From: Gemmatimonadales bacterium
GTDB lineage: Bacteria > Gemmatimonadota > Gemmatimonadetes > Gemmatimonadales > GWC2-71-9
Assembly: GCA_037916975.1 (NCBI GenBank)
Contig: JBAIWX010000150.1
Span: 3,643 to 67,642, forward strand
Reading direction: 5' to 3'
Length of the DNA stretch: 64,000 bases
The translations under genes and the position numbers were made by a program. The notes below the pieces were generated by a model. The model was given only the letters and a program-made list of their open reading frames with translations. It was not told where the DNA came from and searched no databases. Within the stretch, counting starts at the first letter, position 1. Every line of letters starts with the position of its first letter. This document shows positions 14,614 through 53,461 of the stretch, in pieces.

Positions 14614-15310
<697 letters not shown>

Positions 15311-15311
<1 letters not shown>

Positions 15312-29220: not shown

Positions 29221-30007
29221 GTCGCGCCTCGCCGCGACCTTCGCGCGCCTGCGGGCGGCGCGGCGGCCGGCGCTCGTCACCTACCTCACGGCGGGGTTCC
29301 CCGACCGCGCCACGAGCCTGGCCGCGCTCCGGGCCGCCGACGAGGTGGCCGACGTGCTCGAGGTGGGCGTCCCCTTCAGCGATCCCCTCGCCGACGGCCC
29401 CACGATCCAGCGCTCGACCTTCCGGGCCCTCGAGCAGGGGATGACCCTCGCCGGCACGCTCGAGCTCGTGCGCGAGCTGCGGGCCCGGGCGCCGGTCGTC
29501 CTCTTCAGTTACGTCAACCCGATCCTGCGCTACGGGACCGAGCGCTTCCTGCGCGACGCGGCGGCCCTCGGCGTGGCGGGCCTCCTCCTCACCGACGTCC
29601 CCGCCGGGAGCGACCCCGCGCTCGAGGCGGCGGTGGCGCGGAGCGGCCTCGACCTGATCCGGCTCCTCGCCCCCACGACGCGGCCGGAGCGGCTCGCGGA
29701 GGCGGTGCAGGGGGCCTCCGGCTTCCTCTACCTCGTCTCGCGCCTGGGCGTGACCGGCGCGAGCCAGTCGCTCGCCGCCGACCTCGAGGCGTCGGTCGCG
29801 CGGGTGCGCGCTGCCTCGCCGCTTCCGGTCGCCGTCGGCTTCGGCATCTCCACCCCGGAGCAGGCGGCGCGCGTGGGCCACCTCGCCGACGGCGTCGTGG
29901 TGGGCAGCGCCCTCGTGGATCGGCTGGGGACCGAGGGCGTCGCGGGGGTGCGGGCCCTCCTTGCGGGGCTCCGCGCCGCGCTCGACGCCCCGGGAGTGGC
30001 CGCATGA
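29213..30007 (+). CDS. trpA: Tryptophan synthase alpha chain
   Basis: [12 protein letters not shown] and [18 protein letters not shown]. The TTG start at 29213 overlaps the last 8 nt of the HD-GYP gene. Confidence 0.9.
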
Positions 30008-32088
30008 CGACCGTGCGCACGGCGCTCCTCGTGGAGGGCTACGCCCGGGTGATTGCCTGGGGCGGGGTCGCGCTCGGCGTGGCCGCCCTCGCGCTCGACC
30101 CCCGGTTCCTCGCCGCCCCCGGCGCCACCCTCCTCATCGCGGTGGCGATCCTGCTGCTCCGCGCCTTCCCCGTGCGGCTCAGCAAGTACTCCTACCTGAC
30201 GCAGGCGGCGGTCCCCGTGCTGGTGGGCGCGGTCGCGGTCGGCCCGGGCCCGGTGGTGGCGGCGCTGCTCGTGGGGGTCTTCGGCGCCGACGTGCTCTGG
30301 CTCCGGAAGGCGACCCGCGTGGGCCTCATCAACGCCGGGCGGGAGGTGGTCGCGTTCACGGCGGCCTACGGGCTCTATGCCGCCGTGCTGGCGGCGACCG
30401 GCACCCCGGGCCTCGCGCTCGACTGGCTCCCGGCGGCATTCACGCTCGTCGCCGCGCACTTCTTCTTCACGCGAAGCCTCTTCTACTTCACCCTCCTGAT
30501 CCGCGACAAGCTCGAGCACGTCGAGCAGCTCCTCATCGTCCGCTGGGAGGTGGTGTCGTACCTCCTCACGCTCGGCGCCTGCGTGATCGTGGGTGCCGCG
30601 CTCGCGACCCTCTCGCCCGCGGGGTGGCTCGCGGTGCTCGGGGTCCTCGCCGCGATCGGGCTCCTCACGAAGCGGATCCTCGAGGAGGCGATCGCCGCCG
30701 AGGACCTCAACAAGATCCACCTCGTGGAGTCGGCGGTGGCGAGCAGCACCGGCCTCGTCGGCGCCTTCGAGCAGATCGAGCGCCTCGGCTACCGGCTCCT
30801 CGACTGGGGCGACTTCCGCATCTGCCGCGCCGAGGGGGAGCGCGTCGTCGTCGCGTACCGGGGCCGGATCGGGCGCCCCGAGCGCGAGCGGCTCCCCGCG
30901 GACCTGCCGACGCTGCGCCGGCAGGTGGCCGCCACCGGCCAGCCCCTCCTCGTGCGCGACGCCGAGCGCGACCCGCGCATCACCGCGCCGGAGCCCGGGG
31001 TGCGCAGCATGATCGTGTACCCCATCCGGTTCGGCGACGAGTTCCTCGGCACCCTCGAGATCGACCACTTCAAGCGCCACGTCTACGGCACCAAGGACCT
31101 CTCGGCCCTCGGCACCATCGCCGCGCAGGTGGCCACGGCGATCCACATCGCCGAGCTGCGCCGCCCGCTCGCCACGACCGTGCAGCAGATCGGCGACCAG
31201 GTCACCGCGCTCGCACGCGTCACGGAGTCGCTCCGGGCGTCGGCGGCGGCGCTCACGCAGGCCTCCGCCGCCGTGCAGCGCACCGTGACGGAACAGGACG
31301 CGTTCGTGCGCGGGGGCCTCGAGACGACCACCGCGCTGACCGCCGATGCCGACACGGTGGCGGAGCAGGGGGCCCGCGTCGCCTCGGCGAGCCGCGCCAC
31401 CACCGAGGTGGCTGCGCAGAAGCGCATCGTGATCGGCGACGCGATCCAGCGGCTCGTGCACCTGCAGGAGTTCGTGCGCGACACCTCGGGGCAGGTGGCC
31501 GCCCTCGGCGGGGTGACCCGGCGCATCACCGGCTTCATCGGGACGATCCGCGAGATCGCCGACACCACGAACCTCATCGCCCTCAACGCCGCCATCGAGG
31601 CGGCGCGCGCGGGGCGCGAGGGCCGCGGCTTCGCCATCGTCGCCGAGGAGGTCCGCACCCTGGCGAGCCAGAGCCTCCACGCCGCGCGCGAGGCGGGCGC
31701 CCTCGTGACGGAGATCGCCGACCAGGTGGAGCGCGTGACCGCCCAGATGGCCCGCGGCCAGGAGACGGTCGCCGGCGTGGAGCGGCTCAGCACCGAGGCG
31801 GCCCTCGCCCTCGACGCCATCGGCAGCGCGGCGGGCGAGGCGGGGGAGCACGCCGCGCAGATCGCGGAAACCGCCGCGGCGCAGCGCCGGCAGGCCGCCT
31901 CCCTCTCGGCGCAGATCGAGCGCGTGGCGCAGGTGGCCCGCCGGGCCCGGGGCGAGTCCGACGCCCTGGCGCAGCAGGCGAGCGCAGCCGCCCGCGGCCA
32001 GGTGGAACTCGAGGGGGCCATCCGCGAGCTGGGCGACGTGGCGTCCGAGCTGCAGCGGATCGCCCGGCACTTCGCGGTGGACGCGTGA
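30004..32088 (+). CDS. Polytopic membrane protein with GAF domain and methyl-accepting chemotaxis (MCP) signalling domain
   Basis: 694 aa. The ATG overlaps the trpA stop (ATGA at 30004-30007). The first ~240 aa have 6-8 hydrophobic helices. A GAF-like segment follows ([17 protein letters not shown]...[21 protein letters not shown]). The canonical MCP hairpin tip is [40 protein letters not shown]. No HAMP domain is evident. Confidence 0.8.
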
Positions 32089-35624: not shown

Positions 35625-36959
35625 TCACTCCACGAGGCCGATGACCACATCCATGACGTTGGTGCCGGTGAGCCCCGGCGCGAGCAGCGCGCCCGCCGCG
35701 GCGAGGGCGGGATTCGCGTCGTGCCGGGCGAGGTCGCGCGCGGGATCCCGCCCCGCGGCCGAGATCGCCTGCCACGTGCTCCCGTCCACGATCGCGCCGG
35801 CGGCGTCGGTGGGGCCGTCGCGCCCGTCGGTGCCGGCGGCGAGGAGGGTGATTCCCGCGGTGCCGGCGAGCGTCGCGGCCGCCGCGAGCGCCAGTTCCTG
35901 GCACCGTCCGCCCAGCCCGGGGTCCTCCCCAAGGGTGACGGTGGTCTCCCCGCCCCAGATGACGCAACGCCTTGCGCCCCCTTGCGTTCCGGGAGCTTGT
36001 GAATTATTTCGCAAAGTCGCGGCTACACTCGCTCCAGCCGTCCGCGCCTCCCCGAGGAGGGGGGCCCGTACGATCTCGACCGCGAGGCCCAACCCTGCCG
36101 CATGCCTGGCCGCCGCTTCCAGCGCCAGGGCGTTGCTCGCCACGATCTCGGTCTCGACGGTCCGGAACACCGGGTCGCCCGCCTTCGGCGTCTCGGGTGC
36201 GGTGCCGTTTTCCACCGCGGCGAGGTGGGTGCGCAGCGCGACGGGAAGCCGGTCCCAGAGTCCCGCGGCCGCGAGCTCGGCGTGGATCTCCCGGGCGGTC
36301 GCGGGGTCGGGGACGCAGGGACCGGAGCCGATGGCGGGGAGGTCGTCGCCGATCACGTCGGACACGACGAGCTGGCGGATGCGGGCGGCGCCGGCGAGCG
36401 CGGCGGCCAGCTTGCCGCCGCCCCAGCGGGTGAAGCGCTTCCGGACGCGGTTCATCGCGCCGATGTCGAGGCCGGAGCCGAGCAGCAGGCCGTAGAGCGC
36501 GTGGAGTTCCGCCGGCGCGATGCCGGGGAGCGGGGCGCCGACGAGGCTGGTGGTGCCGCCCGAGAGCAGGACCCACACCTCGGCGCCCGGCGGGATGCGG
36601 GCCACGACGTCGCCGAGGAGCGTGGCGGCGGCGAGCGAGGCGGCGCCGGGCTGCGGGTGGTCGCCCGCGACGACCGGCAGGGCCGCGTCGGGCGCGGGGG
36701 CGAGCGCCGGGGCCACGACGAGCCCGCCCGCGAGGTCGAGGCCCTGCGCGCGCGCGTGGCGCGCCGCGGCGGCCGCCATCGGGACGGCGGCCTTGCCGAG
36801 GGCGAGGATCCAGAGCGGGACGCCGCGCGCGGGGCGCGGGCCGCGCGCCAGCGCGGCCGCGACGGCGGGGCCGGGATCCACCGCGCGGACGGCCGCGCCG
36901 TAGAGCGATTCGAGCGTGGCGCGCGCGCCGCGCGGGGCGGGGTCGGTGTGAGGATTCAT
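35625..36959 (-). CDS. gckA: Glycerate 2-kinase (MOFRL/TtuD family)
   Basis: 444 aa with VLLSGGTTSL, WGGETTVTLG, GLGGRCQELALAAA and AAGTDGRDGPTDAAGA, the pattern of the MOFRL glycerate kinase family. It is divergent from the sgaA operon. Confidence 0.78.
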   Translation of the reverse strand: MNPHTDPAPRGARATLESLYGAAVRAVDPGPAVAAALARGPRPARGVPLWILALGKAAVPMAAAAARHARAQGLDLAGGLVVAPALAPAPDAALPVVAGDHPQPGAASLAAATLLGDVVARIPPGAEVWVLLSGGTTSLVGAPLPGIAPAELHALYGLLLGSGLDIGAMNRVRKRFTRWGGGKLAAALAGAARIRQLVVSDVIGDDLPAIGSGPCVPDPATAREIHAELAAAGLWDRLPVALRTHLAAVENGTAPETPKAGDPVFRTVETEIVASNALALEAAARHAAGLGLAVEIVRAPLLGEARTAGASVAATLRNNSQAPGTQGGARRCVIWGGETTVTLGEDPGLGGRCQELALAAAATLAGTAGITLLAAGTDGRDGPTDAAGAIVDGSTWQAISAAGRDPARDLARHDANPALAAAGALLAPGLTGTNVMDVVIGLVE

Positions 36960-36979
36960 TCAGCCTGGTGGGGCGGAGG

Positions 36980-37008
36980 TTTCGTCCAGCGGGCCGCATG
37001 AATATATC
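36980..37008 (+). promoter_or_regulatory. Candidate promoter for the sgaA operon (TTTCGT-N17-TATATC)
   Basis: This is the only AT-rich patch in the 132-bp gckA/sgaA divergent spacer. It is followed by the hairpin GAGACGG...CCGTCTC (37010-37032) and a GAGG Shine-Dalgarno 6 nt before the ATG at 37092. Confidence 0.25.
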
Positions 37009-37091
37009 AGAGACGGGCGGGGCCGCCGTCTCGGAAATGGCCGTGGTCCGGTGAGGCCGCGGACGCGTTTTCCTTTCTCAGCGAGGTCGCA

Positions 37092-38330
37092 ATGCCGGGT
37101 CGCAACTTCCTCTTCGTGCCGGGACCGACGAACACGCCGGACCGGATCCTCCGGGCGATGCACGTGCCGATGGAGGACCACCGCTCGTCCTCGTTCCCGG
37201 AGCTCACGCTCCCGATCTTCCGCGACCTCCGCACCGTCTTCCAGACCACGAGCGGGACGCCCTTCGTCTTCCCCGGCACGGGGACGGGCGGCTGGGAGTC
37301 GGCCCTCGTCAACACGCTCTCGCCGGGCGACAAGGTGCTCTCGTTCCGCTACGGCCAGTTCAGCCACCTCTGGATCGACATGATGCAGCGGCTCGGCCTC
37401 GACGTGACGGCGATCGACGTCGAGTGGGGCGAGGGGGCGCCGCCGGAGCAGGTCGAGGAGATCCTGCGCAAGGACACGGCGCACGCCTACAAGGCCGTGT
37501 GCGTGGTGCACAACGAGACGGCGACGGGCGTGACGAGCGACATCGGCGCCGTGCGGAAGGCGATCGACGCGGCGAAGCACCCGGCGCTCCTCATGGTGGA
37601 CAGCGTCTCGGGCTTCGCCAGCATCGACTTCCGCATGGACGAGTGGAAGGTGGACATCGCGGTCACCGGGTCGCAGAAGGGCTTCATGCTGCCGGCGGGC
37701 GCGGGGATCGTCTGCGTGAGCCCGAAGGCGCTCGAGCACGGCAAGACGGCGAAGCTCCCGCGCTGCTACTGGAGCTACGAGGACATGATCAAGGCGAACG
37801 CGACGGGGTACTTCCCGTACACGCCGTCGATCCCGATGCTCTACGGGCTGCGCGAGGCCCTGACGATGCTGCTCGAGGAGGGGCTGCCGAACGTCTTCGC
37901 GCGGCACCACCGGCTCGCCGAGGGGTGCCGGCGCGCGGTGGCGGCGTGGGGGCTCTCGCTCTGCGCGAAGGCGCCGAAGTGGCACTCCGACACGGTGAGC
38001 GCCATCATGGTGCCGCCGGGCTTCAACGGCGCCGACGTGATCGACGTCGCGTACCGGCGCTACAACTTCGCCCTCGGCGCGGGGCTCAACAAGGTCGCGG
38101 GCAAGCTCTTCCGCATCGGCCACCTGGGCGACCTGAACGAGATCACCCTCCTCGCGGGGATCGCCGGCGCGGAGATGGCGATGAAGGACGTCGGCATCAA
38201 GGTCACGCTCGGCTCGGGCGTGGCGGCGGCCCAGCAGTACTGGATCGACACCCAGGCGCCGCTCCCGCCGAAGTCGGTGGCGGGCCCGGCGGAGGCGGCG
38301 GTGGCCCGCAAGCCGGCGGGGGTCGCGTGA
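37092..38330 (+). CDS. sgaA: Serine--glyoxylate aminotransferase
   Basis: Near-colinear with Methylobacterium extorquens SgaA as I recall it: GRNFLFVPGPTNTPDRILRAM, FGQFSHLWIDM(M/A)QRLGLDV, VVHNETATGVTSDIGAVRKAIDAAKHPALL, GSQKGFMLPAG, GYFPYTP and KLFRIGHLGDLNE. Confidence 0.9.
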   Translation: MPGRNFLFVPGPTNTPDRILRAMHVPMEDHRSSSFPELTLPIFRDLRTVFQTTSGTPFVFPGTGTGGWESALVNTLSPGDKVLSFRYGQFSHLWIDMMQRLGLDVTAIDVEWGEGAPPEQVEEILRKDTAHAYKAVCVVHNETATGVTSDIGAVRKAIDAAKHPALLMVDSVSGFASIDFRMDEWKVDIAVTGSQKGFMLPAGAGIVCVSPKALEHGKTAKLPRCYWSYEDMIKANATGYFPYTPSIPMLYGLREALTMLLEEGLPNVFARHHRLAEGCRRAVAAWGLSLCAKAPKWHSDTVSAIMVPPGFNGADVIDVAYRRYNFALGAGLNKVAGKLFRIGHLGDLNEITLLAGIAGAEMAMKDVGIKVTLGSGVAAAQQYWIDTQAPLPPKSVAGPAEAAVARKPAGVA

Positions 38331-39268
38331 GCCACACGCGCTTCGAGCCGGTCCGCCCGCGGCTGCAGCGCAGCACGCTCGCGGTGCCGGGCTCCCAGCC
38401 GCAGATGTTCCAGAAGGCGCTCGAGAGCGCGGCCGACGTCGTGTTCCTCGACCTCGAGGACGCGGTGGCGCCGGCCGACAAGGAGCAGGCCCGGGTGAAC
38501 GTCATCCAGGGCCTGCGCGAGCTCGACTGGCGCGGGCGCGGGAAGACCGTCATGGTCCGGCTCAACGGCATCGACACCCACTACTTCTACCGCGACGTGG
38601 TGGACGTGGTGGAGCAGGCGGGCGACCGGCTCGACCTGGTGCTCGTCCCGAAGGTCGGCGTCCCGGCGGACGTGTACCTCACCGACGCCCTGCTCACCCA
38701 GATCGAGGCGGCGAAGGGGATCCCGCACCGGATCGGGATCGAGGTGCTGATCGAGACTGCGCTCGGGATGGCGAACGTCGAGGCGATCGCGCAGAGTTCG
38801 CGGCGGCTCGAGGCGATGCACTTCGGGGTGGCGGACTACGCGGCGAGCTGCCGCGCGCGCACGGTGAGCATCGGGGGGCTCAACCCCGACTACCCGGGCG
38901 ACCAGTGGCACTTCGCGCTCTCGCGCATGACCGTCGCGTGCCGCGCCTACGGGCTCCGCGCGATCGACGGCCCCTTCGGCGACTTCAAGGACCCCGACGG
39001 CTTCCTCGCGGCGGCCCGGCGGGACGCGGCGCTCGGCATCGAGGGCAAGTGGGCGATCCACCCCTCGCAGGTCGCGCTGGCGAACGAGGTCTTCACCCCG
39101 CCGCCGGCGGAGGTGGAGCGCGCCCGGCGGATCCTCGTGGCCCTCGACGAGGCGGCGAAGGCGGGGAAGGGCGCCGCCCAGCTCGACGGCAAGATGATCG
39201 ACGCGGCCTCGGCCCGGATGGCCGAGAACATCGTCCGCATGGCGGAAGCCATCGCGGCCAGGACCTGA
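38327..39268 (+). CDS. mclA: Malyl-CoA lyase
   Basis: PRLQRSTLAVPGSQP, ADVVFLDLEDAVAPADKEQAR, LVPKVGVPADVY, LIETALGMANVEAIA, ACRAYGLRAIDGPFGDF and GIEGKWAIHPSQ. The GTG overlaps the sgaA stop (GTGA). Confidence 0.9.
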   Translation: MSHTRFEPVRPRLQRSTLAVPGSQPQMFQKALESAADVVFLDLEDAVAPADKEQARVNVIQGLRELDWRGRGKTVMVRLNGIDTHYFYRDVVDVVEQAGDRLDLVLVPKVGVPADVYLTDALLTQIEAAKGIPHRIGIEVLIETALGMANVEAIAQSSRRLEAMHFGVADYAASCRARTVSIGGLNPDYPGDQWHFALSRMTVACRAYGLRAIDGPFGDFKDPDGFLAAARRDAALGIEGKWAIHPSQVALANEVFTPPPAEVERARRILVALDEAAKAGKGAAQLDGKMIDAASARMAENIVRMAEAIAART

Positions 39269-39295
39269 CCAGGCGAGCCAACGGGAGAGACGTCC

Positions 39296-40492
39296 GTGGA
39301 CATCCACGAATACCAGGCCAAGGAACTCCTCGCCGGCTTCGGCGTCGGGATCCCCCGCGGCGGGGTGGCGTACAGCCCCGAGCAGGCGGTGTACCGCGCG
39401 TCGGAGATCGGCGGGAACCGCTGGGCGGTGAAGGCCCAGATCCACTCGGGGGCCCGCGGCAAGGCGGGCGGCATCAAGGTCTGCACGACCGAGGACGAGG
39501 TCCGGCAGGCGGCGAAGACGCTCCTCGGGAGCCGGCTGGTGACGCACCAGACGGGGCCCGAGGGGAAGGTGGTGCACCGGCTCTACGTCGAGCAGGCGGT
39601 GCCGATCGAGCGCGAGATCTACCTCGGGCTCGTGCTGGACCGGAAGAGCCAGCGCATCATGGTGGTCGCCGCCCCGCAGGGCGGCATGGAGATCGAGGAG
39701 ATCGCGAAGACGCACCCCGACGCCATCATCCGCGAGGTGGTGGAGCCGGCGGTCGGGATGACGGCGTTCCAGGCGCGCGAGGTCGCCTTCGCGCTCGGGC
39801 TCTCGCCGCAGCTGGTGACGCGGATGGTGAACACCCTCCTCGGCTGCCACCGCGCCTTCCGCGACCTCGACGCCACGATGGTGGAGATCAACCCGCTCGT
39901 GGTCACGAAGGACGGCCAGCTCCTCGCGCTCGACGCGAAGATGACCTTCGACGACAACGCCCTCTTCCGGCGGCCGAACGTCGCGGAGCTCCGCGACTAC
40001 GCCGAGGAGGACCCGCGCGAGGCGATGGCGTCGGAGCACGGGCTCAACTACGTGGCGCTCGACGGGAACATCGGCTGCATCATCAACGGCGCCGGCCTCG
40101 CCATGGCCACGATGGACATGATCAAGCACGCCGGCGGCTCGCCGGCGAACTTCCTCGACGTGGGCGGCGGCGCCTCGCCGGAGCGCGTGGCGACGGCGTT
40201 CAAGCTCGTGCTCGCCGACCCGAAGATCGAGGCGATGCTCGTCAACATCTTCGCCGGCATCAACCGCTGCGACTGGGTGGCGCAGGGCGTGGTGCAGGCG
40301 GTGCGGGAGATCGACCTCAAGATCCCGCTCGTCGTGCGCCTCGCCGGCACGAACGTCGAGGCGGGCCGCAAGATCCTCACCGACAGCGGGCTCCCCATCA
40401 TCACCGCCGAGTCGCTCGCCGACGCCGCGGACAAGGTGGTGGCCGCCCTCAACGGCGCGCGGGCCGGGGCCGGCCGCGCCGCAGGAGCGTGA
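39296..40492 (+). CDS. mtkA: Malate--CoA ligase (malate thiokinase) beta subunit; SucC paralogue
   Basis: [17 protein letters not shown] and [20 protein letters not shown]. The GARGKAGG variant and genomic context favour MtkA over SucC. GGGAGAG lies upstream of the GTG start. Confidence 0.78.
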
Positions 40493-40496
40493 CGCG

Positions 40497-41411
40497 ATGA
40501 GCATCCTGATCGACCAGACCACGCGGGTCATCGTCCAGGGCTTCACCGGCGACAAGGCGACCTTCCACGCGAAGGAGATGATCGCCTACGGCACGAACGT
40601 GGTCGGCGGCGTCACCCCGGGGAAGGGCGGCACCCGCCACCTCGACCGCCCCGTGTTCAACACGGTGAAGGAGGCGGTGCAGGAGACCGGCGCCACGGCG
40701 AGCATCGTGTTCGTCCCGGCCGCCTTCTGCGCCGACTCCATCATGGAGGCGGCCGCCGCCGGCATCCGCCTCGTCTGCGCCATCACCGACGGGATCCCGG
40801 CGCAGGACATGATGATGGTGAAGCGCTACCTCCTCCGGTTCCCGAAGGAGCGGCGCACCATGCTCGTCGGCCCCAACTGCGCGGGGCTCATCTCCCCCGG
40901 CAAGGCGATGCTCGGCATCATGCCGGGGCACATCTACATGCAGGGGAACGTGGGCGTGGTGACCCGCTCGGGCACCCTCGGCTACGAGGCCGCCTCGCAG
41001 ATGAAGGCGCTCGGCATCGGCATCTCGACGAGCGTCGGCATCGGCGGCGACCCGATCAACGGCTGCTCGTTCATGGACGTCCTCCAGCTCTTCGAGGAGG
41101 ACCCGGAGACCGACGCGGTCATGATGATCGGCGAGATCGGCGGCCCGCAGGAGGCCGAGGCGGCGCAGTGGGCCCGCGAGAACATGACGAAGCCGGTCAT
41201 CGGCTACGTCGCCGGCCTCACCGCGCCCAAGGGCCGCCGGATGGGCCACGCCGGCGCCATCATCTCCGCCTTCGGCGACACGGCGGCGGAGAAGGCCGAA
41301 ATCATGCGGTCGCTGGGCCTGGCCGTGGCGCCGAGCCCGGCGGAGCTGGGCGACACCGTGGCGAAGGTGCTCGCCTCGCGGAAGGGCCGGACCACGGTGG
41401 GCGCCGCATGA
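40497..41411 (+). CDS. mtkB: Malate--CoA ligase alpha subunit; SucD paralogue
   Basis: MSILIDQTTRVIVQGFTGDKATFHAKEMIAYGTNVVGGVTPGKGG, GPNCAGLISPGKAMLGIMPGHIY and AGLTAPKGRRMGHAGAIIS match M. extorquens MtkB as I recall it. Confidence 0.78.
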   Translation: MSILIDQTTRVIVQGFTGDKATFHAKEMIAYGTNVVGGVTPGKGGTRHLDRPVFNTVKEAVQETGATASIVFVPAAFCADSIMEAAAAGIRLVCAITDGIPAQDMMMVKRYLLRFPKERRTMLVGPNCAGLISPGKAMLGIMPGHIYMQGNVGVVTRSGTLGYEAASQMKALGIGISTSVGIGGDPINGCSFMDVLQLFEEDPETDAVMMIGEIGGPQEAEAAQWARENMTKPVIGYVAGLTAPKGRRMGHAGAIISAFGDTAAEKAEIMRSLGLAVAPSPAELGDTVAKVLASRKGRTTVGAA

Positions 41412-42382
41412 GCGCCCGCCCGGTCGTGGTCGTCACGCGCCGCCTCCCCGGGGAGGTGGAGGCGGAGCTCGGGAAGGACTTCGACGTCCGGCTGAACGCT
41501 GACGACGTCCCCCTCACCGCCGAGCAGCTCAAGGAGGCGCTCCGGACGGCGGATGCGCTCCTGCCGACGGTGACCGACCGCCTCACCGCCGAGGTGCTGG
41601 GCGTGGAGCCGCTCCGGGCGCGGATCCTCGCCAACTTCGGCGTCGGCTTCAACCACATCGACGTGGCGACGGCGAAGGCCCGCGGGCTCGCCGTCTCCAA
41701 CACCCCCGACGTCCTGACCGACGCCACCGCCGACACCGCCGTGACGCTGCTCCTCATGGTGGCGCGCCGCGCGGGCGAGGGGGAACGCCACGTCCGCGCC
41801 GGGCAGTGGACGGGCTGGCGGCCCACGCACATGCTCGGGACCCACGTGACCGGCAAGACGCTCGGCCTCGTCGGCATGGGCCGCATCGCGCGCGCGGTCG
41901 CGCGGCGGGCGCACCACGGCTTCGGGATGAAGGTCATCTTCCACGACCCGTACCCCCCGACGCCGCAGGAGGCGGCGGCCCTCGGGGCCGAGCCCTGCGG
42001 GTCGCTCGACGAGGTGTTCGAGCGGAGCGACTTCGTCTCGCTCCACTGCCCGGCCACCCCGGAGACGCGGCACCTGGTGAACGCGGAGCGGCTCGCGCGG
42101 ATGAAGCGCGGCGCCTACCTCGTGAACACCGCGCGCGGCGACGTCGTGGACGAGGCGGCGCTGGTCGCGGCGCTCCGGGCCGGCACCATCGCCGGGGCCG
42201 GCCTCGACGTCTTCGAGAAGGAGCCGGCCGTCACCCCGGCGCTCCTCGGCATGGAGAACGTGGTGCTCCTGCCGCACCTCGGGAGCGCGACCCGCGAGAC
42301 CCGCGTGGCGATGGGGATGCGCGCCCTCGAGAACCTGCGCCTCTTCTTCGCCGGCAAGCCCCTGCGCGACAAGGTGGCGTGA
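41408..42382 (+). CDS. hprA: Hydroxypyruvate/glyoxylate reductase (D-2-hydroxyacid dehydrogenase family)
   Basis: NAD-binding GKTLGLVGMGRIARAVARR, and the catalytic region LVNTARGDVVDE...LLPHLGSAT. The ATG overlaps the mtkB stop (ATGA). Confidence 0.78.
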   Translation: MSARPVVVVTRRLPGEVEAELGKDFDVRLNADDVPLTAEQLKEALRTADALLPTVTDRLTAEVLGVEPLRARILANFGVGFNHIDVATAKARGLAVSNTPDVLTDATADTAVTLLLMVARRAGEGERHVRAGQWTGWRPTHMLGTHVTGKTLGLVGMGRIARAVARRAHHGFGMKVIFHDPYPPTPQEAAALGAEPCGSLDEVFERSDFVSLHCPATPETRHLVNAERLARMKRGAYLVNTARGDVVDEAALVAALRAGTIAGAGLDVFEKEPAVTPALLGMENVVLLPHLGSATRETRVAMGMRALENLRLFFAGKPLRDKVA

Positions 42383-45147
42383 GCCAGGACGCGCAGCTCC
42401 CGTACGACCCCGCCGCGCTCCCGGCCTCCCGGGAGCCGGCGGCGGTGGTCGCCGCCGCCTACGCGGAGGAGGTCGCCGACCTCCTCTACGGCCAGCTCGT
42501 CGAGGTCGTCCGCGAGCGCGAGCCCGCCCTCGAGCGGGTCCTCCAGGGCGAGGCGGACGACCTGCCCGCCGCGCTCCGGCCCCGGGCGCTCCAGGTCCTC
42601 GGGATCTGGCTCCACCTCCTCGGCATCGCCGAGCAGAACGCGGCGATGCGCCGGCGCCGCCAGCTCGAGACGGAGAAGGGCCCGGAGGTCCTGCGCGGGA
42701 GCTTCCTCCTCGCGCTCGAGGACGCCCGGGCCGCCGGCGTCGGTCCCGACGTGGTGCGGGACCTCCTCCGGAACCTCCGCGTCCGTCCCACCGTCACGGC
42801 CCATCCCACCGAGGCCAAGCGCGTCACCGTCCTCGAGCGGCACCGCCGGATCTACCGGCTCCTCGTGGACCTCGAGTCGCCCCGGTGGACCCCGCGCGAG
42901 CGCCAGGCCCTCCAGCAGGGCGTCCGCAACGAGATCGCGCTCCTCTGGATGACCGGCGAGCTCCGGCTCGAGAAGCCGACGGTGGAGCAGGAGGTGTACT
43001 GGGCGCTCCACTTCTTCAACGAGACGCTCTTCGAGCAGGTCCCGCTCCTGCACGAGCGGCTCGAGCGCGCGCTCCAGCAGGTGTGGCCGGGGGAGGACTT
43101 CGAGGTCCCCTCGGTGCTGCAGTTCGGCTGCTGGGTGGGCGGCGACCGCGACGGCAACCCGTACGTCACGAACGACGTGACGCGCTGGACCCTCAACCAG
43201 AACCGCCTCAACGCCCTGGGCCGCTACCAGCGCCGCCTCGCGGACCTCGTGCGGACCCTGAGCGTGAGCGAGCGCAGCGTCCCCGTGCCCGCGGAGTTCC
43301 GGCGGGCGCTCGAGCGGCGGCTCGCCGAGTCGGGGGTGGCGGAGCAGATCACGCAGCGCAACCCCGGCGAGGTGTTCCGCCAGTTCCTGAGCTGCGCCCT
43401 GCGCAAGCTCGACGCCGCGATCGCGTCGGCGCAGGCGGGGGTCACGGAGCCCCCGGCCGGGGCGTTCCGGGGCGCCGACGAGCTGCTGGCCGACCTCCGG
43501 CTGCTCGAGCAGGCGGTCGCCTCGGCGTGCGGCGCGGCGATCGCGCAGGCGTACGTGCGGCCGGTGCGCCGCGAGGTGGAACTGTTCCGCTTCAGCACCG
43601 TGCGGCTCGACGTCCGCGAGAACACCACGCGCCTCGGCGAGGCGCTCGGCGCGCTCTGGCGGCTGCGCACGGGGCGGCTGGACGCCGACCCGCCCGACCC
43701 GAAGTCCGACGAGTGGCTCGCCTGGCTCCAGGGGGAGCTCGCCCGGCCGCGCTTCGAGGAACTGCGGCTCCAGGCGCTGCCGGCGGGGGCGCAGGAGACG
43801 GTGGGCCTCTTCCGGCTCGTGGCCGAGATGCGCGAGCAGGTGGACCGGGAGGCGTTCGGCGCGTTCATCCTCTCCATGACGCACTCCGCCGCCGACGTGC
43901 TCGGCGCGTACCTCCTCGCGAAGGAGGGCGGCCTCTTCCCGGACCAGCACGGCACCGAGCGCTGCGTCCTGCCGATCGTCCCGCTCTTCGAGACGATCGA
44001 CGACCTCCGCCGCGCGCCCGCGATCATGCGCGAACTGCTCGCCGTGCCGCTCGTGCGGCGCAGCCTCCGTGACCAGGGCGGCGTGCAGGAGGTGATGATC
44101 GGCTACTCCGACTCCAACAAGGACGGCGGCTTCTTCACCGCCAACTGGGAGCTCTACACCGCCCAGATGCGCCTCACCCGCCTCGGGCGCGAGCTCGGCG
44201 TGCCGATCGGCTTCTTCCACGGGCGCGGCGGCTCGGTGAGCCGGGGCGGAGCGCCGACGGGGCGCGCGATCGCCGCCCAGCCCGCCGGCTCCATCAACGG
44301 CTGGTTCCGCCTCACCGAGCAGGGCGAGGTCGTGTCGTACAAGTACGCCAACCGCGGCACCGCCGGGTACCAGCTCGAGCTGCTCGCCTCGGCGGTGCTG
44401 CAGCACGCGCTCGTCTCCGAGCGCGAGGCGGCGCTCAAGCCGGTCGGCGAGTACGACGAGGCGCTGGAGGCCATCTCCGGCGCGTCCTTCGCGGCCTATC
44501 GCCGGTTCGTGGAGCACCCCGACCTGCTCGCGTACGTCCAGCAGGCGAGCCCCCTCGAGGAGATCGCGCTCCTCAACCTCGGCTCCCGGCCCGCGCGGCG
44601 GTTCGGCGCGCGCTCGCTCGGCGACCTGCGGGCCATCCCGTGGGTCTTCGCGTGGAGCCAGAACGGGCACAACGTGCCGGGATGGTTCGGGGTGGGCGCC
44701 GGGCTCGAGACCTTCCTGCAGGTGCGTGGCGAGCGCGGGGAGCGGCTGCTCCGGCGGATGTTCCAGGACTCGCGGCTCTTCCGCCTCATCATCGACGAGG
44801 TGGAGAAGACCCTCGTGAAGGTGGACCTCGACATCGCGCGCGAGTTCGCCGCGCTGGTGCCGGATGCGCGGGCCCGGGACGAGGTCTTCGGGATGGTGGA
44901 GGAGGAATACCACCGGACCGTCCGCGCGGTCCTGCGCGTCACCGGGGCGTCGTCGGTCGCCGAGCGGTTCCCCCGCTACGTCCGCCAGTACATGCGGCGC
45001 CAGCCGACGGTACGCGAGGCGAGCCGGCTCCAGGTCGCCTACCTGCGCGAGTATCGCGGCGCCTCCGGCGAGGCCGCACGGGAGGCGCTGCAGGGCCTCC
45101 TGCTCTCGTTCAACTGCGTGGCGACGGGCCTGGGCTGGACGGGCTGA
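42379..45147 (+). CDS. ppc: Phosphoenolpyruvate carboxylase
   Basis: 922 aa with VTAHPTEAKR, FGCWVGGDRDGNP, MIGYSDSNKDGG, FHGRGGSVSRGGAP and C-terminal ...NCVATGLGWTG. The GTG overlaps the hprA stop (GTGA). Confidence 0.9.
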   Translation: MSQDAQLPYDPAALPASREPAAVVAAAYAEEVADLLYGQLVEVVREREPALERVLQGEADDLPAALRPRALQVLGIWLHLLGIAEQNAAMRRRRQLETEKGPEVLRGSFLLALEDARAAGVGPDVVRDLLRNLRVRPTVTAHPTEAKRVTVLERHRRIYRLLVDLESPRWTPRERQALQQGVRNEIALLWMTGELRLEKPTVEQEVYWALHFFNETLFEQVPLLHERLERALQQVWPGEDFEVPSVLQFGCWVGGDRDGNPYVTNDVTRWTLNQNRLNALGRYQRRLADLVRTLSVSERSVPVPAEFRRALERRLAESGVAEQITQRNPGEVFRQFLSCALRKLDAAIASAQAGVTEPPAGAFRGADELLADLRLLEQAVASACGAAIAQAYVRPVRREVELFRFSTVRLDVRENTTRLGEALGALWRLRTGRLDADPPDPKSDEWLAWLQGELARPRFEELRLQALPAGAQETVGLFRLVAEMREQVDREAFGAFILSMTHSAADVLGAYLLAKEGGLFPDQHGTERCVLPIVPLFETIDDLRRAPAIMRELLAVPLVRRSLRDQGGVQEVMIGYSDSNKDGGFFTANWELYTAQMRLTRLGRELGVPIGFFHGRGGSVSRGGAPTGRAIAAQPAGSINGWFRLTEQGEVVSYKYANRGTAGYQLELLASAVLQHALVSEREAALKPVGEYDEALEAISGASFAAYRRFVEHPDLLAYVQQASPLEEIALLNLGSRPARRFGARSLGDLRAIPWVFAWSQNGHNVPGWFGVGAGLETFLQVRGERGERLLRRMFQDSRLFRLIIDEVEKTLVKVDLDIAREFAALVPDARARDEVFGMVEEEYHRTVRAVLRVTGASSVAERFPRYVRQYMRRQPTVREASRLQVAYLREYRGASGEAAREALQGLLLSFNCVATGLGWTG

Positions 45148-45231: not shown

Positions 45232-46317
45232 TCAGGCGGCGGGATCGCCCGCGGCGGCGCGACGCCGCTTCCGCTCCACCTCGACGCGGAGCTGGCCGCA
45301 CGCGGCGTTGATGTCGAGGCCCCGGCTCCGGCGCACCGAGGCCTCGACGCCGTGCGCCCGGAGGCGCTCGGCGAACGCGCGGATGCGGCCGGCCGGCGTG
45401 GGCGCGAGCCCCGCCTCCCCGCCCGGGTGGAGCGGGAGCAGGTTCACGAGCGCGCCGAGCTTCTTCGCGTGCGCGGCCAGGCGGTCGGCATCGGCATCGG
45501 TGTCGTTCCGGCCGCTGATCAGGACGTACTCGAAGGTCACGCGCTTCCGGAACGCTTTCGCCGCCTCGAGCACGGCCGCTAGGTCGTACTTCTTCTCCAC
45601 GGGCATGATCGCGCGCCGCCGCTCCGCCGTCGGCGCGTGCAGCGAGATCGCGAGCCGGAACTGCTCCGGCCGCTTCGCGAACTCGGCCATCCCGGGCAGG
45701 ATGCCGACCGTGGAGACCGTGATGTGCCGCGCCCCGATGCCGAGGCCCTCGGGGTCGTTGAGGATCGTGAGCGTCACGTCCACCGCCGGCCAGTTGAGGA
45801 GCGGCTCGCCCATCCCCATGAACACGATGTTGGTCGGCTTGTCGGCCGGGTCGCGGAGCACCACCTCCCGCACCTGCCCCGCGATCTCCGCGGGGGAGAG
45901 GTTCCGCCGGAAGCCCATCGTGCCGGTGGCGCAGAAGACGCAGCCCAGCGCGCACCCCGCCTGAGAGGAGATGCACAGCGTGCGGCGCGTCCCGGAGGGG
46001 ATCAGGACCGACTCGACCAGCTCGCCGTCGTGCAGGCGCCAGAGGAACTTCTGCGTCCCGTCCTGCGACTGCTGGATCGTCACCGCCTCGAGCCGGGGGA
46101 GGGGCAGCTCCCGGTCGAGTTGCTCCCGGAGCGCCTTCGGCAGGTCGGTCGCATCGGCCCATGCCGCCACCGGCTGCAGCCACAGGCGCCGGTGCAGCTG
46201 CGTCGCACGGTACGCGGGGAGGCCGGCCGCCTGCACCCAGGCGGCGAGACGCTCCCGCGCGGCGGCGGGTGTCAGGTCGAGCAGGGAGGCGGGGGCCTCG
46301 GCGCGGCGGCTCGTCAT
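45232..46317 (-). CDS. rlmN: 23S rRNA/tRNA (adenine-C2)-methyltransferase RlmN (radical SAM)
   Basis: Radical-SAM cluster motif GCALGCVFCATG, plus GMGEPLLN and INAACGQL. The start ATG 46317 (MTSRRAE...) is taken within the longer track ORF. Confidence 0.9.
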   Translation of the reverse strand: MTSRRAEAPASLLDLTPAAARERLAAWVQAAGLPAYRATQLHRRLWLQPVAAWADATDLPKALREQLDRELPLPRLEAVTIQQSQDGTQKFLWRLHDGELVESVLIPSGTRRTLCISSQAGCALGCVFCATGTMGFRRNLSPAEIAGQVREVVLRDPADKPTNIVFMGMGEPLLNWPAVDVTLTILNDPEGLGIGARHITVSTVGILPGMAEFAKRPEQFRLAISLHAPTAERRRAIMPVEKKYDLAAVLEAAKAFRKRVTFEYVLISGRNDTDADADRLAAHAKKLGALVNLLPLHPGGEAGLAPTPAGRIRAFAERLRAHGVEASVRRSRGLDINAACGQLRVEVERKRRRAAAGDPAA

Positions 46318-49315: not shown

Positions 49316-49756
49316 ATGACGCGGGGCGCGGCGGGCGCACCGGGCGAGGTGCGGGTGGCGGGGCGGCGGCCGGCGCTCCCGGCGGCGACGGTGCGACGGG
49401 TGGTGGCCGCCGTGCTGGCCGGGGAGCGCCGCCGCGCGCAGGTCTCCGTCACCTTCCTCGGCCGTGACGCCATGCGCGCCCTCAACGCCCGCTGGCTCGG
49501 CCACGACCGCCCCACCGACGTGATCGCCTTCGGGCTCCCGCAGCCCGGCGGCGGGCTCGCCGGCGACGTGTACGTCTGCCGCTGGGCGGCCGAGCGGGAG
49601 GCGCGCCGCCGGCGGATCCCGCTCCGCCGCGAGCTGGTGCGCCTCGTCGTCCACGGCACCCTCCACGTCCTCGGGCACGACCACCCCGAGGGGCCCGAGC
49701 GGGAGCGCTCGCCGATGTGGCGGCGGCAGGAACGCTACGTCGAGGCGCTCGCCTGA
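49316..49756 (+). CDS. ybeY: rRNA maturation endoribonuclease YbeY
   Basis: Zn-binding motif HGTLHVLGHDH. Confidence 0.9.
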   Translation: MTRGAAGAPGEVRVAGRRPALPAATVRRVVAAVLAGERRRAQVSVTFLGRDAMRALNARWLGHDRPTDVIAFGLPQPGGGLAGDVYVCRWAAEREARRRRIPLRRELVRLVVHGTLHVLGHDHPEGPERERSPMWRRQERYVEALA

Positions 49757-50940
49757 TGGCGGCCCTCCAGCTCTTCCTCGCGCCGCTCGTCGCGATCGCG
49801 CTCACGTTCTGGGCGGCCTGGCTCGCCCTCGCCGCGGAGGCGGACCCCGACCGCCCCCGCGCGCTCGCGGGGCAGCTCCGCCTGCGCTCGCCGCTCGCCG
49901 AGGCGCGCAGCCTCCACCTCTGCCACCTGCTGCTCCTCGTGCTCGCCGGCGTCGCCGCGGGCGGCGCGATGGCGTGGTGGACCTGGCCGGGGCTCGCGGG
50001 CGTCGCGCGGCTCGTCGCCGCCGTCGCGCTCGTCTGGGTCGTGGGCGACCTGCTGCCGCGGCTCCTCGGGACCCTCGCCCCCGAGCTGGCGCGCCCCGCG
50101 CGCGCCGCGGCGCTCGGCACGCTCGTGCCGTTCGGGCCGGTCCTGCGGGCCTTCGCCCGGCTCGAGGCCCGCGCCGGTGCCGCGCCGACGCCGGCCCGTG
50201 CGGCTCAGGCGGGGGAGCGCGACATGCTCACCGGCGTCTTCGCCCTCCGCGAGACGACCGTCGCCGAGGTGATGACGCCGCGCATCGACATCGCCGCGGT
50301 GGACGTGATGATGGACCGGGACGAGGTCGTCGCGATGCTGCGCGCGTCGGAGCACGCGCGGCTCCTCGTCTACGACGGCCACCCCGACAACGTGGCGGGC
50401 GTCCTGTACGCCAAGGACGTCCTCGCGCGGCTCTCCGGGCCCGAGGCGGACGCGCCGTGGCCCGAGCTGATCCGGCCCGCGGCGTTCGTCCCCGAGGGGA
50501 AGACGCTCGACCGCCAGCTCCGGGACTTCAAGCGCGGCCCGGGCCACTTGGCCGTGGTGGTGGACGAGTTCGGCGGGACGGCCGGCATCGTGACGCTCGA
50601 GGACATCCTCGAGCAGATCGTCGGCGAGATCCGCGACGAGCACGACATCGACGAGGTGGCCCCCGTGACGGCGCTCGGCGGGGACGCGTGGCGGGTGCAG
50701 GGCGGCGTCGGGCTCACCGAGCTGGAGGGGCTGCTGGGCCACCGGTTCGCCCGGGAGGACGTGAGCACCGTGGGCGGGCTCGTCCTCGCGGAGCTCGGCC
50801 GCGTCCCGCGCGCGGGGGAGCAGCTCACCCTCGACGGCTTCACCCTGACCGTCGAGCAGGTGGCGCGCCGCCGGGTGCGCCGCGTGACGGTGAAGCGCCT
50901 CCCCGCCGAGGCGCCCGCGCCCGAGGAGGCGGCCCGGTGA
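49756..50940 (+). CDS. CNNM/DUF21-CBS-CorC_HlyC family transporter-associated protein (copy 1)
   Basis: N-terminal TM (DUF21-like) region, a CBS pair (VAEVMTPRIDI..., AVVVDEFGGTAGIVTLEDILEQIVGEI) and a CorC_HlyC C-terminus. The ATG shares 1 nt with the ybeY stop. Confidence 0.85.
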   Translation: MAALQLFLAPLVAIALTFWAAWLALAAEADPDRPRALAGQLRLRSPLAEARSLHLCHLLLLVLAGVAAGGAMAWWTWPGLAGVARLVAAVALVWVVGDLLPRLLGTLAPELARPARAAALGTLVPFGPVLRAFARLEARAGAAPTPARAAQAGERDMLTGVFALRETTVAEVMTPRIDIAAVDVMMDRDEVVAMLRASEHARLLVYDGHPDNVAGVLYAKDVLARLSGPEADAPWPELIRPAAFVPEGKTLDRQLRDFKRGPGHLAVVVDEFGGTAGIVTLEDILEQIVGEIRDEHDIDEVAPVTALGGDAWRVQGGVGLTELEGLLGHRFAREDVSTVGGLVLAELGRVPRAGEQLTLDGFTLTVEQVARRRVRRVTVKRLPAEAPAPEEAAR

Positions 50941-52112
50941 TCTGGACCGTGTTCCTCTTGGGGCTCGTCGTCGCGGCCTTCGGCGCCACCGCGGGCGGCG
51001 CGCTGGTGGCCACGAGCCGTGCGGAGCTCGCGCGCTACGTCGCCGCGCGGCTCCGGGGCGTCCCGGCCGAGACGGGGCGCCTCGGCGAGGTCGAGACGCT
51101 CCTCGTCGCGGCGTCGTCCACGACGGCGCTCGGCGTGCTCGTCCTGGGTGCGTCGCTGCCGGCGCTCGTCGTCGGCGAGGGGGTGCTCCCGTCCCTCGGC
51201 GGCCTCGTCTTCGTCGGCGTGCCCGTGGTGCTCGCGGCCGGGTACTTCCTTCCGCGCTGGCTCACGGAGCGGCGGGCGGAGGCGGTGGCGCGCGCGGTGC
51301 TGCCGGCGCTCCGGCCGTGGGCCCGCTTCGTCGGGCTCCTCCTGCCGGCGGCCGGGCCGCAGCAGCGCTTCCGCGCGATCCAGCGCGAGGGCGGTTCGCT
51401 CGACGCGGACGCCGAGGGGGAGCTGTCGCTGATGGGGGGCGTGCTCACCTTCGCCCAGCGGCCGGTGCGCGAGGTCATGACGCCGCGCACGGACATCGTC
51501 GCGATCAGCGAGTACGCGCCGGTCGAGGAGATCACGGCGGTGTTCGCCCAGAGCGGCTACAGCCGGATCCCGGTCTTCCGCGGCACGCTCGACGAGATCG
51601 TCGGCATGCTGCACGCCTTCGACCTCTTCCGCCTCCGGCCCGGCGCGCCCCTCCCGGTGCGGCCGGTGACGGCCGCGCCGGCGAGCCGCGGGTGCGCCGA
51701 CCTGCTGGTGGACATGCAGCGGGAGCGGCGGCACATGGCGGTCGTGCTCGACGAGTACGGCGGCACCCTGGGGGTCGTGACGCTCGACGACCTCCTCGAG
51801 GCGATGGTGGGCGAGATCGCCGAGGACGAGCCGGTGGCGCCGGGCGCCGGGGCGCCGCTGCTCGAGGCCGACGGCGGCCTTGCGCGCGACGCCGTGGAGG
51901 AGCGCTTCGACGTGCGCCTCCCGCCGGCGCGCGCCGCCACGATCGGCGGGCTCGTGGCGGAGCTCGCGGGCCGGATCCCGAACGCCGGGGAGCGCTTCGT
52001 CGCCGCCGGGCTCGAGTTCGACGTGCTGCAGGCCTCCCCGACGCGCATCGAGCGCGTCGTCATCCGGCCGGTCCCGCCGGCCCCCGTCCCCCTCCCGGAG
52101 GGTGCCGCGTGA
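50937..52112 (+). CDS. CNNM/DUF21-CBS-CorC_HlyC family protein (copy 2, tandem paralogue)
   Basis: Same architecture as copy 1 (VREVMTPRTDI..., AVVLDEYGGTLGVVTLDDLLEAMVGEI). The GTG overlaps the upstream stop (GTGA). Confidence 0.85.
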   Translation: MIWTVFLLGLVVAAFGATAGGALVATSRAELARYVAARLRGVPAETGRLGEVETLLVAASSTTALGVLVLGASLPALVVGEGVLPSLGGLVFVGVPVVLAAGYFLPRWLTERRAEAVARAVLPALRPWARFVGLLLPAAGPQQRFRAIQREGGSLDADAEGELSLMGGVLTFAQRPVREVMTPRTDIVAISEYAPVEEITAVFAQSGYSRIPVFRGTLDEIVGMLHAFDLFRLRPGAPLPVRPVTAAPASRGCADLLVDMQRERRHMAVVLDEYGGTLGVVTLDDLLEAMVGEIAEDEPVAPGAGAPLLEADGGLARDAVEERFDVRLPPARAATIGGLVAELAGRIPNAGERFVAAGLEFDVLQASPTRIERVVIRPVPPAPVPLPEGAA

Positions 52113-53461
52113 GCGACATCGCCGAGCGCGAGCAGCTGGTCGGGGAGCACGTCGCGCTGGTCCGCGCGGGCCGGCTCGACGAGTTCGCGCGGCGCGCCGC
52201 CGAGCTCGCCCCGGTGGACCTCGCGGACGTCCTGGCCGCGCTCGAGGACGACGAGCGCGTCACCGCCGTGCAGGCGCTCCCGCCGGAAGTCTCGAGCCAG
52301 GCGCTGGTCGAGATGCCGGAGGAGGAGCACCCCGAGGAGACCCTCGCCGCGCTCGACCCGGGCCAGGCGGCGGAGATCGTCGAGGAGCTCGCCGACGACG
52401 ACGCGGCCGACATCCTCGGCGAGCTCGAGCCGGCGGAGCAGGAGCGGATCCTCTCCGAGGTGGAGGACGAGGATCGCGCCGAGGTGGAGAAGCTGCTCGT
52501 CTACGACGAAGAGTCGGCGGGCGGCCTGATGACCACCCGCATGGTGACCGTGCCCGACACGGCCACGGTGGGGGCGGCGCTCGACGAGGTCCGGCGGCAG
52601 GCGGAGGAGCTCGAGGACTTCTACGAGGTGTACGTCGTGGACGCCCGGCGCCACCTCATGGGGACGATCTCGTTCCGGGCGCTCGCGACCAACGCGCCGG
52701 CGCGGCCGGTGCGGGAGCTGATGGAGGAGCCGGCGGAGACGGTGGGGCCGGAGACCGACCAGGAGGAGGTGGCGCGGGTCATGGCCCGCCACAACCTCGC
52801 CGCCGTGCCGGTCGTGGACGAGGACCGCCGGCTCCTGGGCTGCGTCACCTTCGACGACGTGACCGACGTGGTCGAGGCGGAGGCGACGGAGGACATCCTC
52901 AAGTTCGGCGGCACCTCGCCGGACGAGGAGCTCGGCGGCAGCTGGCTCGCCGCGGTGCGGAGCCGGCTCCCCTGGCTCTACGTGAACCTCGTCACCGCGT
53001 TCCTCGCGGGCGCCGTGGTCTACGCCTTCAAGGACGTCGTGGCCCGGATCGTGGTGCTCGCCGCCTGGCAGCCGATCATCGCGGGGATGGGCGGCAACGC
53101 CGGCACGCAGGCGCTCGCCGTCACGGTGCGCCGGCTGGCCCTCGGGCTCATCTCCCCGAGCGAGTTCAGCCGCGTGGTGGGGAAGGAGATGGTCGTGGGG
53201 CTCATCAACGGCCTCGCCAACGGCCTCGTCGTCGCGCTGGTGGCGGTGCTGCTCCACCAGGGGCCGATGCTCGGGCTGGTCGTCTTCCTCGCGATGGCCG
53301 GCAACCTCCTCGTCGCGGGGTTCGCCGGCGGCTTCATCCCGATCCTGCTCGAGCGGTTCCGGGTGGACCCGGCGATCGCCTCGTCCATCTTCGTCACGAC
53401 CTTCACCGACGTCTGCGGCTTCTGGCTGCTGCTCGGGCTCGCGAGCACGCTGCTGCTCTGA
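52109..53461 (+). CDS. mgtE: Magnesium transporter MgtE
   Basis: Acidic MgtE N-domain, a CBS pair and a TM domain with IIAGMGGNAGTQ. The GTG overlaps the upstream stop (GTGA). Confidence 0.9.
   Translation: MSDIAEREQLVGEHVALVRAGRLDEFARRAAELAPVDLADVLAALEDDERVTAVQALPPEVSSQALVEMPEEEHPEETLAALDPGQAAEIVEELADDDAADILGELEPAEQERILSEVEDEDRAEVEKLLVYDEESAGGLMTTRMVTVPDTATVGAALDEVRRQAEELEDFYEVYVVDARRHLMGTISFRALATNAPARPVRELMEEPAETVGPETDQEEVARVMARHNLAAVPVVDEDRRLLGCVTFDDVTDVVEAEATEDILKFGGTSPDEELGGSWLAAVRSRLPWLYVNLVTAFLAGAVVYAFKDVVARIVVLAAWQPIIAGMGGNAGTQALAVTVRRLALGLISPSEFSRVVGKEMVVGLINGLANGLVVALVAVLLHQGPMLGLVVFLAMAGNLLVAGFAGGFIPILLERFRVDPAIASSIFVTTFTDVCGFWLLLGLASTLLL

Follow-up and report, generated by a model that had tools for sequence, protein, structure and literature searches.

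The pathway-specific enzymes of the methylotroph serine cycle are encoded in Methylobacterium by clusters with the gene order sga-hprA-mtdA-fch-mtkA-mtkB-ppc-mcl, and the same pathway has been attributed to members of the Gemmatimonadota. Soil Gemmatimonadetes metagenome-assembled genomes (MAGs) encode a XoxF methanol dehydrogenase that is abundant in the soil proteome, together with the whole tetrahydromethanopterin (H4MPT) pathway, a tetrahydrofolate (H4F) route and the serine pathway in its canonical, malate-intermediated form (Butterfield et al. 2016, PMC5103831), and most of the XoxF-containing MAGs from weathered granite, Gemmatimonadetes being represented in that set, carry the full serine pathway (PMC10875860). 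The class Gemmatimonadetes was labelled in rhizospheres in a 13C-methanol RNA stable-isotope probing (SIP) study (PMC9258066), and a Gemmatimonadales MAG of GWC2-71-9 was recovered from 13C-methanol-enriched soil (PMC10994693). The trait varies by lineage, since one proposed Gemmatimonadota methanotroph MAG has been argued in a 2026 preprint to be without sga and hprA. Here we describe a locus of seven genes in a 64,000-nucleotide stretch of contig JBAIWX010000150.1 (assembly GCA_037916975.1, Gemmatimonadales bacterium), referred to below as the window, which we think is probably the pathway-specific half of a serine cycle that assimilates one-carbon (C1) units in uncultured Gemmatimonadales.

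The locus resembles the Methylobacterium clusters (our comparison loci L013, L023, L034 and L037) in encoding the same pathway-specific enzymes, but the genes stand in another order, mtdA and fch lie inside the Methylobacterium clusters and not inside that of the window, and the window has an adjacent glycerate kinase gene (gck) and a 2-hydroxyacid dehydrogenase of a different subfamily. With the soil Gemmatimonadetes MAGs (PMC5103831, PMC10875860) it has in common the phylum and a malate-mediated serine pathway accompanied by glycerate kinase and phosphoenolpyruvate (PEP) carboxylase; those, however, were published as whole-MAG pathway inventories. An earlier note on this DNA, made from the sequence alone, had offered an unrecognized C1-assimilation capacity as one explanation of the locus. 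Because the lineage is Gemmatimonadales, the pathway is published and the class carries label in the RNA-SIP study (PMC9258066), the capacity cannot be called unrecognized: the serine pathway with XoxF and H4MPT/H4F genes has been described in soil Gemmatimonadetes since 2016 (PMC5103831, PMC10875860). The locus is one more, well-preserved instance of genes that have been attributed to the phylum before, and their order is one already common in Proteobacteria.

Organization of the locus and enzyme assignments

The genes sga, mcl, mtkA, mtkB, hpr and ppc constitute a single translationally coupled operon, with gck divergent from it upstream (Table 1). The 4-nt overlaps read by the earlier note are present in the sequence, GTGA at 38327 (sga/mcl, with the mcl start codon inside the sga stop overlap), ATGA at 41408 (mtkB/hpr) and GTGA at 42379 (hpr/ppc). 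Between mcl and mtkA there is a gap of 27 nt, with GGGAGAG ahead of the gap, and mtkA and mtkB are separated by 4 nt; ppc is convergent with rlmN (45232-46317). The open reading frames and the family and structure matches given below agree with the seven serine-cycle genes that had been proposed here.

Table 1. Features of the serine-cycle locus, with predicted products and positions in the window.
Feature	Predicted product or role	Position	Strand	Length	Remark
gck	MOFRL-type glycerate kinase	35625-36959	-	444 aa	divergent from operon
gck-sga intergenic region	presumed promoter region of gck and operon	36960-37091		132 bp	
sga	serine-glyoxylate aminotransferase (class V)	37092-38330	+	412 aa	
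mcl	L-malyl-CoA / beta-methylmalyl-CoA lyase	38327-39268	+	313 aa	
mtkA	malate-CoA ligase (malate thiokinase) beta subunit	39296-40492	+	398 aa	
mtkB	malate-CoA ligase alpha subunit	40497-41411	+	304 aa	
hpr	D-2-hydroxyacid dehydrogenase, GhrB/GRHPR type	41408-42382	+	324 aa	
ppc	phosphoenolpyruvate carboxylase	42379-45147	+	922 aa	final gene of operon

Judged by their sequences, Sga, Mcl and MtkA are assigned to the serine-glyoxylate aminotransferases, the Mcl-type lyases and the malate-CoA ligases, respectively. The best solved structure for Sga is 6PK1, a serine-glyoxylate aminotransferase, at 494 bits (the runner-up scores 157). Mcl contains the Pfam domain HpcH_HpaI and is matched over its full length by the M. 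extorquens malyl-CoA lyase (5UGR, 428 bits), followed by Rhodobacter Mcl (4L9Y, 330 bits), with CitE-type lyases at 123 bits or less. MtkA scores 710.6 bits on the NCBIfam model of the malate-CoA ligase beta subunit (NF010647, cut-off 604) versus 555 on the SucC model, and is 75-85% identical to Gemmatimonadales MtkA and 67-74% identical to proteobacterial MtkA, versus 51% for E. coli SucC. MtkB matches models of the SucD family; a dedicated MtkB model was not returned by NCBIfam. The reference for Methylobacterium comparisons is Methylobacterium sp. 10 (locus L013), to whose MtkA the window protein is 69% identical; for Sga, Mcl and MtkB, which the earlier note described as nearly colinear with the M. 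extorquens proteins, the identities to Methylobacterium sp. 10 are 63-64%, 64% and 76%. That note had also allowed that Sga and Mcl might fall into functionally different subfamilies; the structures that they match are the serine-glyoxylate aminotransferase and the M. extorquens malyl-CoA lyase named above.

Neighbor-joining trees rooted on E. coli SucC recover the Gemmatimonadales MtkA sequences as monophyletic in 33 of 40 bootstraps, and as sister to a clade of the Methylobacterium/Methylocystis/Methylibium type in 31 of 40. Because the sequences were picked by similarity to the query, biasing the sampling toward it, and a single outgroup was used, this sister-group placement is tentative.

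Two other identities bear on these assignments, and we regard it as extremely improbable that either one accounts for the locus. The first would make the aminotransferase a BhcA-type aspartate-glyoxylate enzyme acting in a route like the beta-hydroxyaspartate cycle. BhcA is a homologous class-V aminotransferase that likewise has glyoxylate as acceptor, and with 602.6 bits on the BhcA model Sga comes nearer to the cut-off of 650 than a Methylobacterium SgaA does (541.5). The cut-off is nonetheless missed, and the partner genes bhcB, bhcC and bhcD are not among the 56 window genes, which were called with a codon-usage model and all scanned for protein families; the identification of Sga as BhcA was rejected on these grounds. 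The second, also raised in the earlier note, is that MtkAB are the succinyl-CoA synthetase of the organism, and both MtkA and MtkB do exceed the SucC and SucD cut-offs as well. Against this, MtkA lies above the malate-CoA ligase cut-off with a higher score than on the SucC model, is closer to methylotroph MtkA than to E. coli SucC by the identities given above, and is encoded in all relatives by a gene flanked by mcl and hpr; mislabelled SucCD were therefore rejected too.

The remaining three proteins stay below the cut-offs of the NCBIfam models that they match. Hpr has the Pfam domains 2-Hacid_dh and 2-Hacid_dh_C; its top NCBIfam models, those for glyoxylate reductase and GhrB, are both matched below cut-off, and among solved structures it comes closest to archaeal glyoxylate reductases (255 bits) and D-glycerate dehydrogenase (1GDH, 232 bits). 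Methylobacterium HprA, to which Hpr is 34% identical, instead matches PRK06487. The name hprA that had been given to this gene needs correction, as its product is not orthologous to Methylobacterium HprA; hydroxypyruvate reductase is the presumed role of Hpr, suggested by the operon context. Gck carries the Pfam domains DUF4147 and MOFRL and matches NCBIfam glycerate 2-kinase models below their cut-offs, its best structures being the MOFRL protein 1X3L, which bears the label of a hypothetical protein, and 2B8N, described as a putative glycerate kinase. Ppc is clearly a PEP carboxylase: it scores 767.8 bits on Pfam PEPcase and 738.9 on NCBIfam PRK00009, below the cut-off of 815, and is 60% identical to Methylobacterium Ppc.

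Gene order and inheritance

Gene order was compared across 80 related loci. The exact order sga-mcl-mtkA-mtkB-hpr-ppc is found in 10 of them, namely five Gemmatimonadales, four gammaproteobacterial MAGs and Mesorhizobium kowhaii; 29 share only the mcl-mtkA-mtkB core (Hyphomicrobium, rhizobia, roseobacters, Methylobacter, Pelagibacteraceae), 20 have a Methylobacterium-type order (L013, L023, L034 and L037 among them), and 21 are arranged otherwise or are too short to classify (for example L003, L008, L044 and L080). With these genes found in one and the same order in 10 or more independent genomes, the set is not a chance assembly. The observation in the earlier note that the order departs from that of Methylobacterium holds, but the order is not an unusual one: as an alternative arrangement it is common, and many Proteobacteria have it too.

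The gammaproteobacterial MAG loci L005, L012, L026, L047 and L076 and the Mesorhizobium kowhaii locus L067 have an identical six-gene order, with a GhrB-type reductase that is 58-64% identical to Hpr of the window. They differ in belonging to another phylum, in having no adjacent gck and in an MtkA that is only 67-74% identical; gck adjoins sga in the relatives L001, L003 and L081-L087. In L012, which has a G+C content of 42%, the operon is preceded by genes for a 5-formyl-H4F cyclo-ligase, fhcD (above cut-off) and folD, and followed by a gene whose product is 52% identical to Methylobacterium MtdA, these flanks bracketing it at 4752-7310 and 16000-16857. In at least one lineage, then, an operon of this type is physically linked with genes of C1 transfer.

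An MtkA scan with one genome per species finds its best matches in Gemmatimonadales MAGs (75-85%) and then in Proteobacteria (65-74%). In a search of a clustered protein collection MtkA of the window is a singleton, the 119 best matches after it are 78-88% identical to it, and the organisms named among them are Gemmatimonadales or Gemmatimonadetes bacteria, with one exception labelled Deltaproteobacteria. In L001 and L081-L087 the cluster occupies the same site, with trpA, a GAF-MCP chemoreceptor gene, folK, panBC(D) and genes for HD and LytR_C proteins on one side, then gck on the minus strand and the six-gene operon, and then rlmN (also on the minus strand), aspS and phoH. Four of these loci (L081-L084) are copies of one population and include a 3.48-Mb contig (contig_17371 of ERZ25039554); the other syntenic relatives are GCA_033764615.1, GCA_016713435.1, GCA_036279355.1 and L001.

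Identities to the syntenic relatives are 55-91% for the cluster proteins and 52-84% for the flanking housekeeping proteins, which is the same range, and the G+C content of the cluster (0.72-0.75) is that of the window, which is uniformly high at 0.70-0.77 per 2-kb bin. We read the cluster as part of the core chromosome, vertically inherited within a family-level group of Gemmatimonadales, and not as a recent island. Recent horizontal transfer in this group was considered and rejected, given the flank-like G+C content, the shared insertion site and the housekeeping-like divergence. An older transfer between phyla is likely, because proteobacterial MtkA sequences are still 67-74% identical. In the more distant Gemmatimonadales L004 and L007 the six-gene operon lies at another site, without an adjacent gck and with an acyl-CoA dehydrogenase gene downstream.

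Proposed pathway and alternatives

The steps proposed here follow the established order of the serine cycle. GlyA, encoded elsewhere, would condense glycine and methylene-H4F to serine, which Sga would convert with glyoxylate to hydroxypyruvate and glycine. Hpr would then reduce hydroxypyruvate to glycerate, Gck would phosphorylate glycerate to 2-phosphoglycerate, and a housekeeping enolase would form PEP, from which Ppc would make oxaloacetate. Following the reduction of oxaloacetate to malate by a housekeeping malate dehydrogenase, MtkAB would activate malate to malyl-CoA and Mcl would cleave this to acetyl-CoA and glyoxylate, the glyoxylate returning to the cycle. We infer the assimilation of C1 units, presumably supplied by the oxidation of methanol or formate through genes in other parts of the genome, and with it the direction of flux, because this is what has been published for the soil Gemmatimonadetes MAGs.

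Several observations weigh against C1 assimilation. Genes of H4F- and H4MPT-linked transfer, of C1 oxidation and of glyoxylate regeneration were not found in the window: among its 56 genes we have been unable to identify glyA, mtdA, fch or ftfL, a methanol, methylamine or formate dehydrogenase, ccr or ecm, or isocitrate lyase, in agreement with the earlier note. Nor are C1 genes linked to the operon in Gemmatimonadales relatives, there being none within 10 kb of it in the eight Gemmatimonadales loci examined. The operon core is present in many bacteria without known methylotrophy (Mesorhizobium, roseobacters, Pelagibacteraceae), the reductase appears from its sequence to be of the broad-specificity GhrB/GRHPR type and no orthologue of Methylobacterium HprA, and we found no literature report of a cultured methylotrophic Gemmatimonadota.

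These observations could also be accounted for if the same enzymes ran a C1-independent, photorespiration-like route of glyoxylate, glycolate or two-carbon metabolism, an alternative that is the main rival but that we consider unlikely. Two molecules of glyoxylate would be converted by Sga to two of glycine, and glycine cleavage together with GlyA would yield serine, which would pass through hydroxypyruvate and glycerate to PEP; Ppc, MtkAB and Mcl would interconvert four-carbon acids with acetyl-CoA and glyoxylate, and no external C1 unit would be consumed. This is consistent with the lack of a C1-entry gene near the operon, in the window and in the Gemmatimonadales relatives examined, with the wide occurrence of the operon core in non-methylotrophs and with a reductase of the glyoxylate/hydroxypyruvate type, and the nearest solved structure of the aminotransferase, 6PK1, is a serine-glyoxylate aminotransferase, the enzyme of plant photorespiration. 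However, genes for glycolate oxidase, glcDEF, gcv and glyoxylate carboligase are absent from the neighborhood of the operon, both in the window and in the flanks of its relatives, and an operon that joins ppc, mtkAB and mcl to sga and hpr bears the mark of the full cycle and not of simple glyoxylate assimilation. Furthermore, in the published Gemmatimonadetes MAGs the pathway occurs alongside XoxF and H4MPT genes (PMC5103831).

It is more doubtful still that the family-level Gemmatimonadales group uses a complete, vertically inherited serine-cycle operon without a dedicated system for oxidizing external C1 compounds, the C1 units being fed in by glycine cleavage. If this were so, the cycle would serve the assimilation of glyoxylate or glycolate, or the conversion of three- and four-carbon acids to acetyl-CoA without loss of carbon, and it would amount to a naturally occurring analogue of the synthetic malyl-CoA-glycerate pathway rather than a form of methylotrophy.

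The similarity of Mcl to the Rhodobacter enzyme 4L9Y (at the 330 bits given above) raises a further alternative, namely that Mcl and MtkAB work mainly in the condensing direction or in the assimilation of acetyl-CoA, joining it with glyoxylate to malyl-CoA and on to malate, which is the role of Mcl1 in the ethylmalonyl-CoA pathway, with the remaining cluster genes supplying glyoxylate acceptors. We think this very improbable. An IcmF-type mutase, a carboxyltransferase and an enoyl-CoA hydratase are encoded 12-18 kb downstream, and Rhodobacter Mcl is described as an enzyme of the ethylmalonyl-CoA pathway (PMC3832036). IcmF, though, is an isobutyryl-CoA mutase and not an ethylmalonyl-CoA mutase, and the window contains neither ccr nor ecm. 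Malate thiokinase is ATP-dependent and drives the formation of malyl-CoA, not its hydrolysis, and the ethylmalonyl-CoA route makes use of the thioesterase Mcl2. The presence of a malate thiokinase, and the absence of any linked Mcl2-type thioesterase, thus both argue against the condensing direction.

For this phylum, which is abundant in soil, the case for methanol use has been built on MAG inventories, one proteome and SIP labelling. To these the locus adds a clean, contiguous and synteny-conserved module of seven genes, which may serve as a marker for Gemmatimonadales lineages endowed with the assimilatory part of the pathway and as a compact gene set for enzyme assays and for targeted transcript or SIP studies. 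The understanding of the serine cycle itself is unchanged by the locus.

Intergenic region and remainder of the window

In the spacer between gck and sga there is an imperfect inverted repeat of 13 nt, ATATCAGAGACGG / CCGTCTCGGAAAT, at 37004-37016 and 37026-37038, with 9 nt between the arms. The relatives aligned with the window do not share this repeat, and their gck-sga intergenic regions contain no conserved operator and no common motif beyond the sga start. A scan with promoter and terminator consensus sequences found no sigma-70 match in the region and was uninformative.

Beyond the locus, whose neighbors are housekeeping genes, the window contains purEK, ppdK, a set of purine genes (purF-like, purLQS, purC and purB), psd, a CDP-alcohol phosphatidyltransferase gene, trpD, lexA and trpCFB. 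The earlier note's naming of ppdK is well supported, at 1310 bits against a cut-off of 843. On the upstream side of the cluster lie trpA and genes for the GAF-MCP chemoreceptor, folK, panBCD and the HD and LytR_C proteins, and on its downstream side rlmN on the opposite strand, aspS, phoH, ybeY, two corC-like genes, mgtE and a SulP transporter gene. Further downstream there follow genes for a baeRF-family protein, a HAD hydrolase, a carboxyltransferase, an S8 peptidase, an enoyl-CoA hydratase and an outer-membrane protein, and the end of an IcmF-type gene.

The acyl-CoA carboxyltransferase (57146-58840), the enoyl-CoA hydratase (61668-62426) and the IcmF fragment (63361-63999) are encoded within 7 kb of one another, and the group looks like one for short or branched acyl-CoA metabolism and not for the ethylmalonyl-CoA pathway. 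The fragment comprises the C-terminal 212 aa of a fused isobutyryl-CoA mutase and matches positions 863-1076 of the 1076-position IcmF profile, in keeping with the IcmF-like mutase that the earlier note had placed there.

The trp operon is split between trpB (24876-26078) and trpA (29213-30007) by genes for a HEAT-repeat protein (561 aa) and an HD/HD_5 protein (487 aa) at 26075-29220, and in the relative L085 an HD/HD_5 protein is likewise encoded immediately upstream of trpA. Between trpA and folK, at 30004-32088, lies the gene for a chemoreceptor of 694 aa with MCPsignal and GAF domains, which is kept at the same position in L081-L085 and L087. In the purSQL run an open reading frame of 109 aa (14284-14613), with a strong coding signal and no Pfam match, is located between purL (11975-14287) and purQ (14610-15311). 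Between the SulP transporter and HAD hydrolase genes, a 407-aa protein encoded at 55210-56433 matches baeRF families 10 and 2, which are bacterial families resembling archaeo-eukaryotic release factors. Finally, several Mg2+/divalent-cation genes occur in the window, both at 2-307, where the end of a CorA gene is found, and at 49756-53461, where two tandem CBS-CorC_HlyC genes are accompanied by mgtE.

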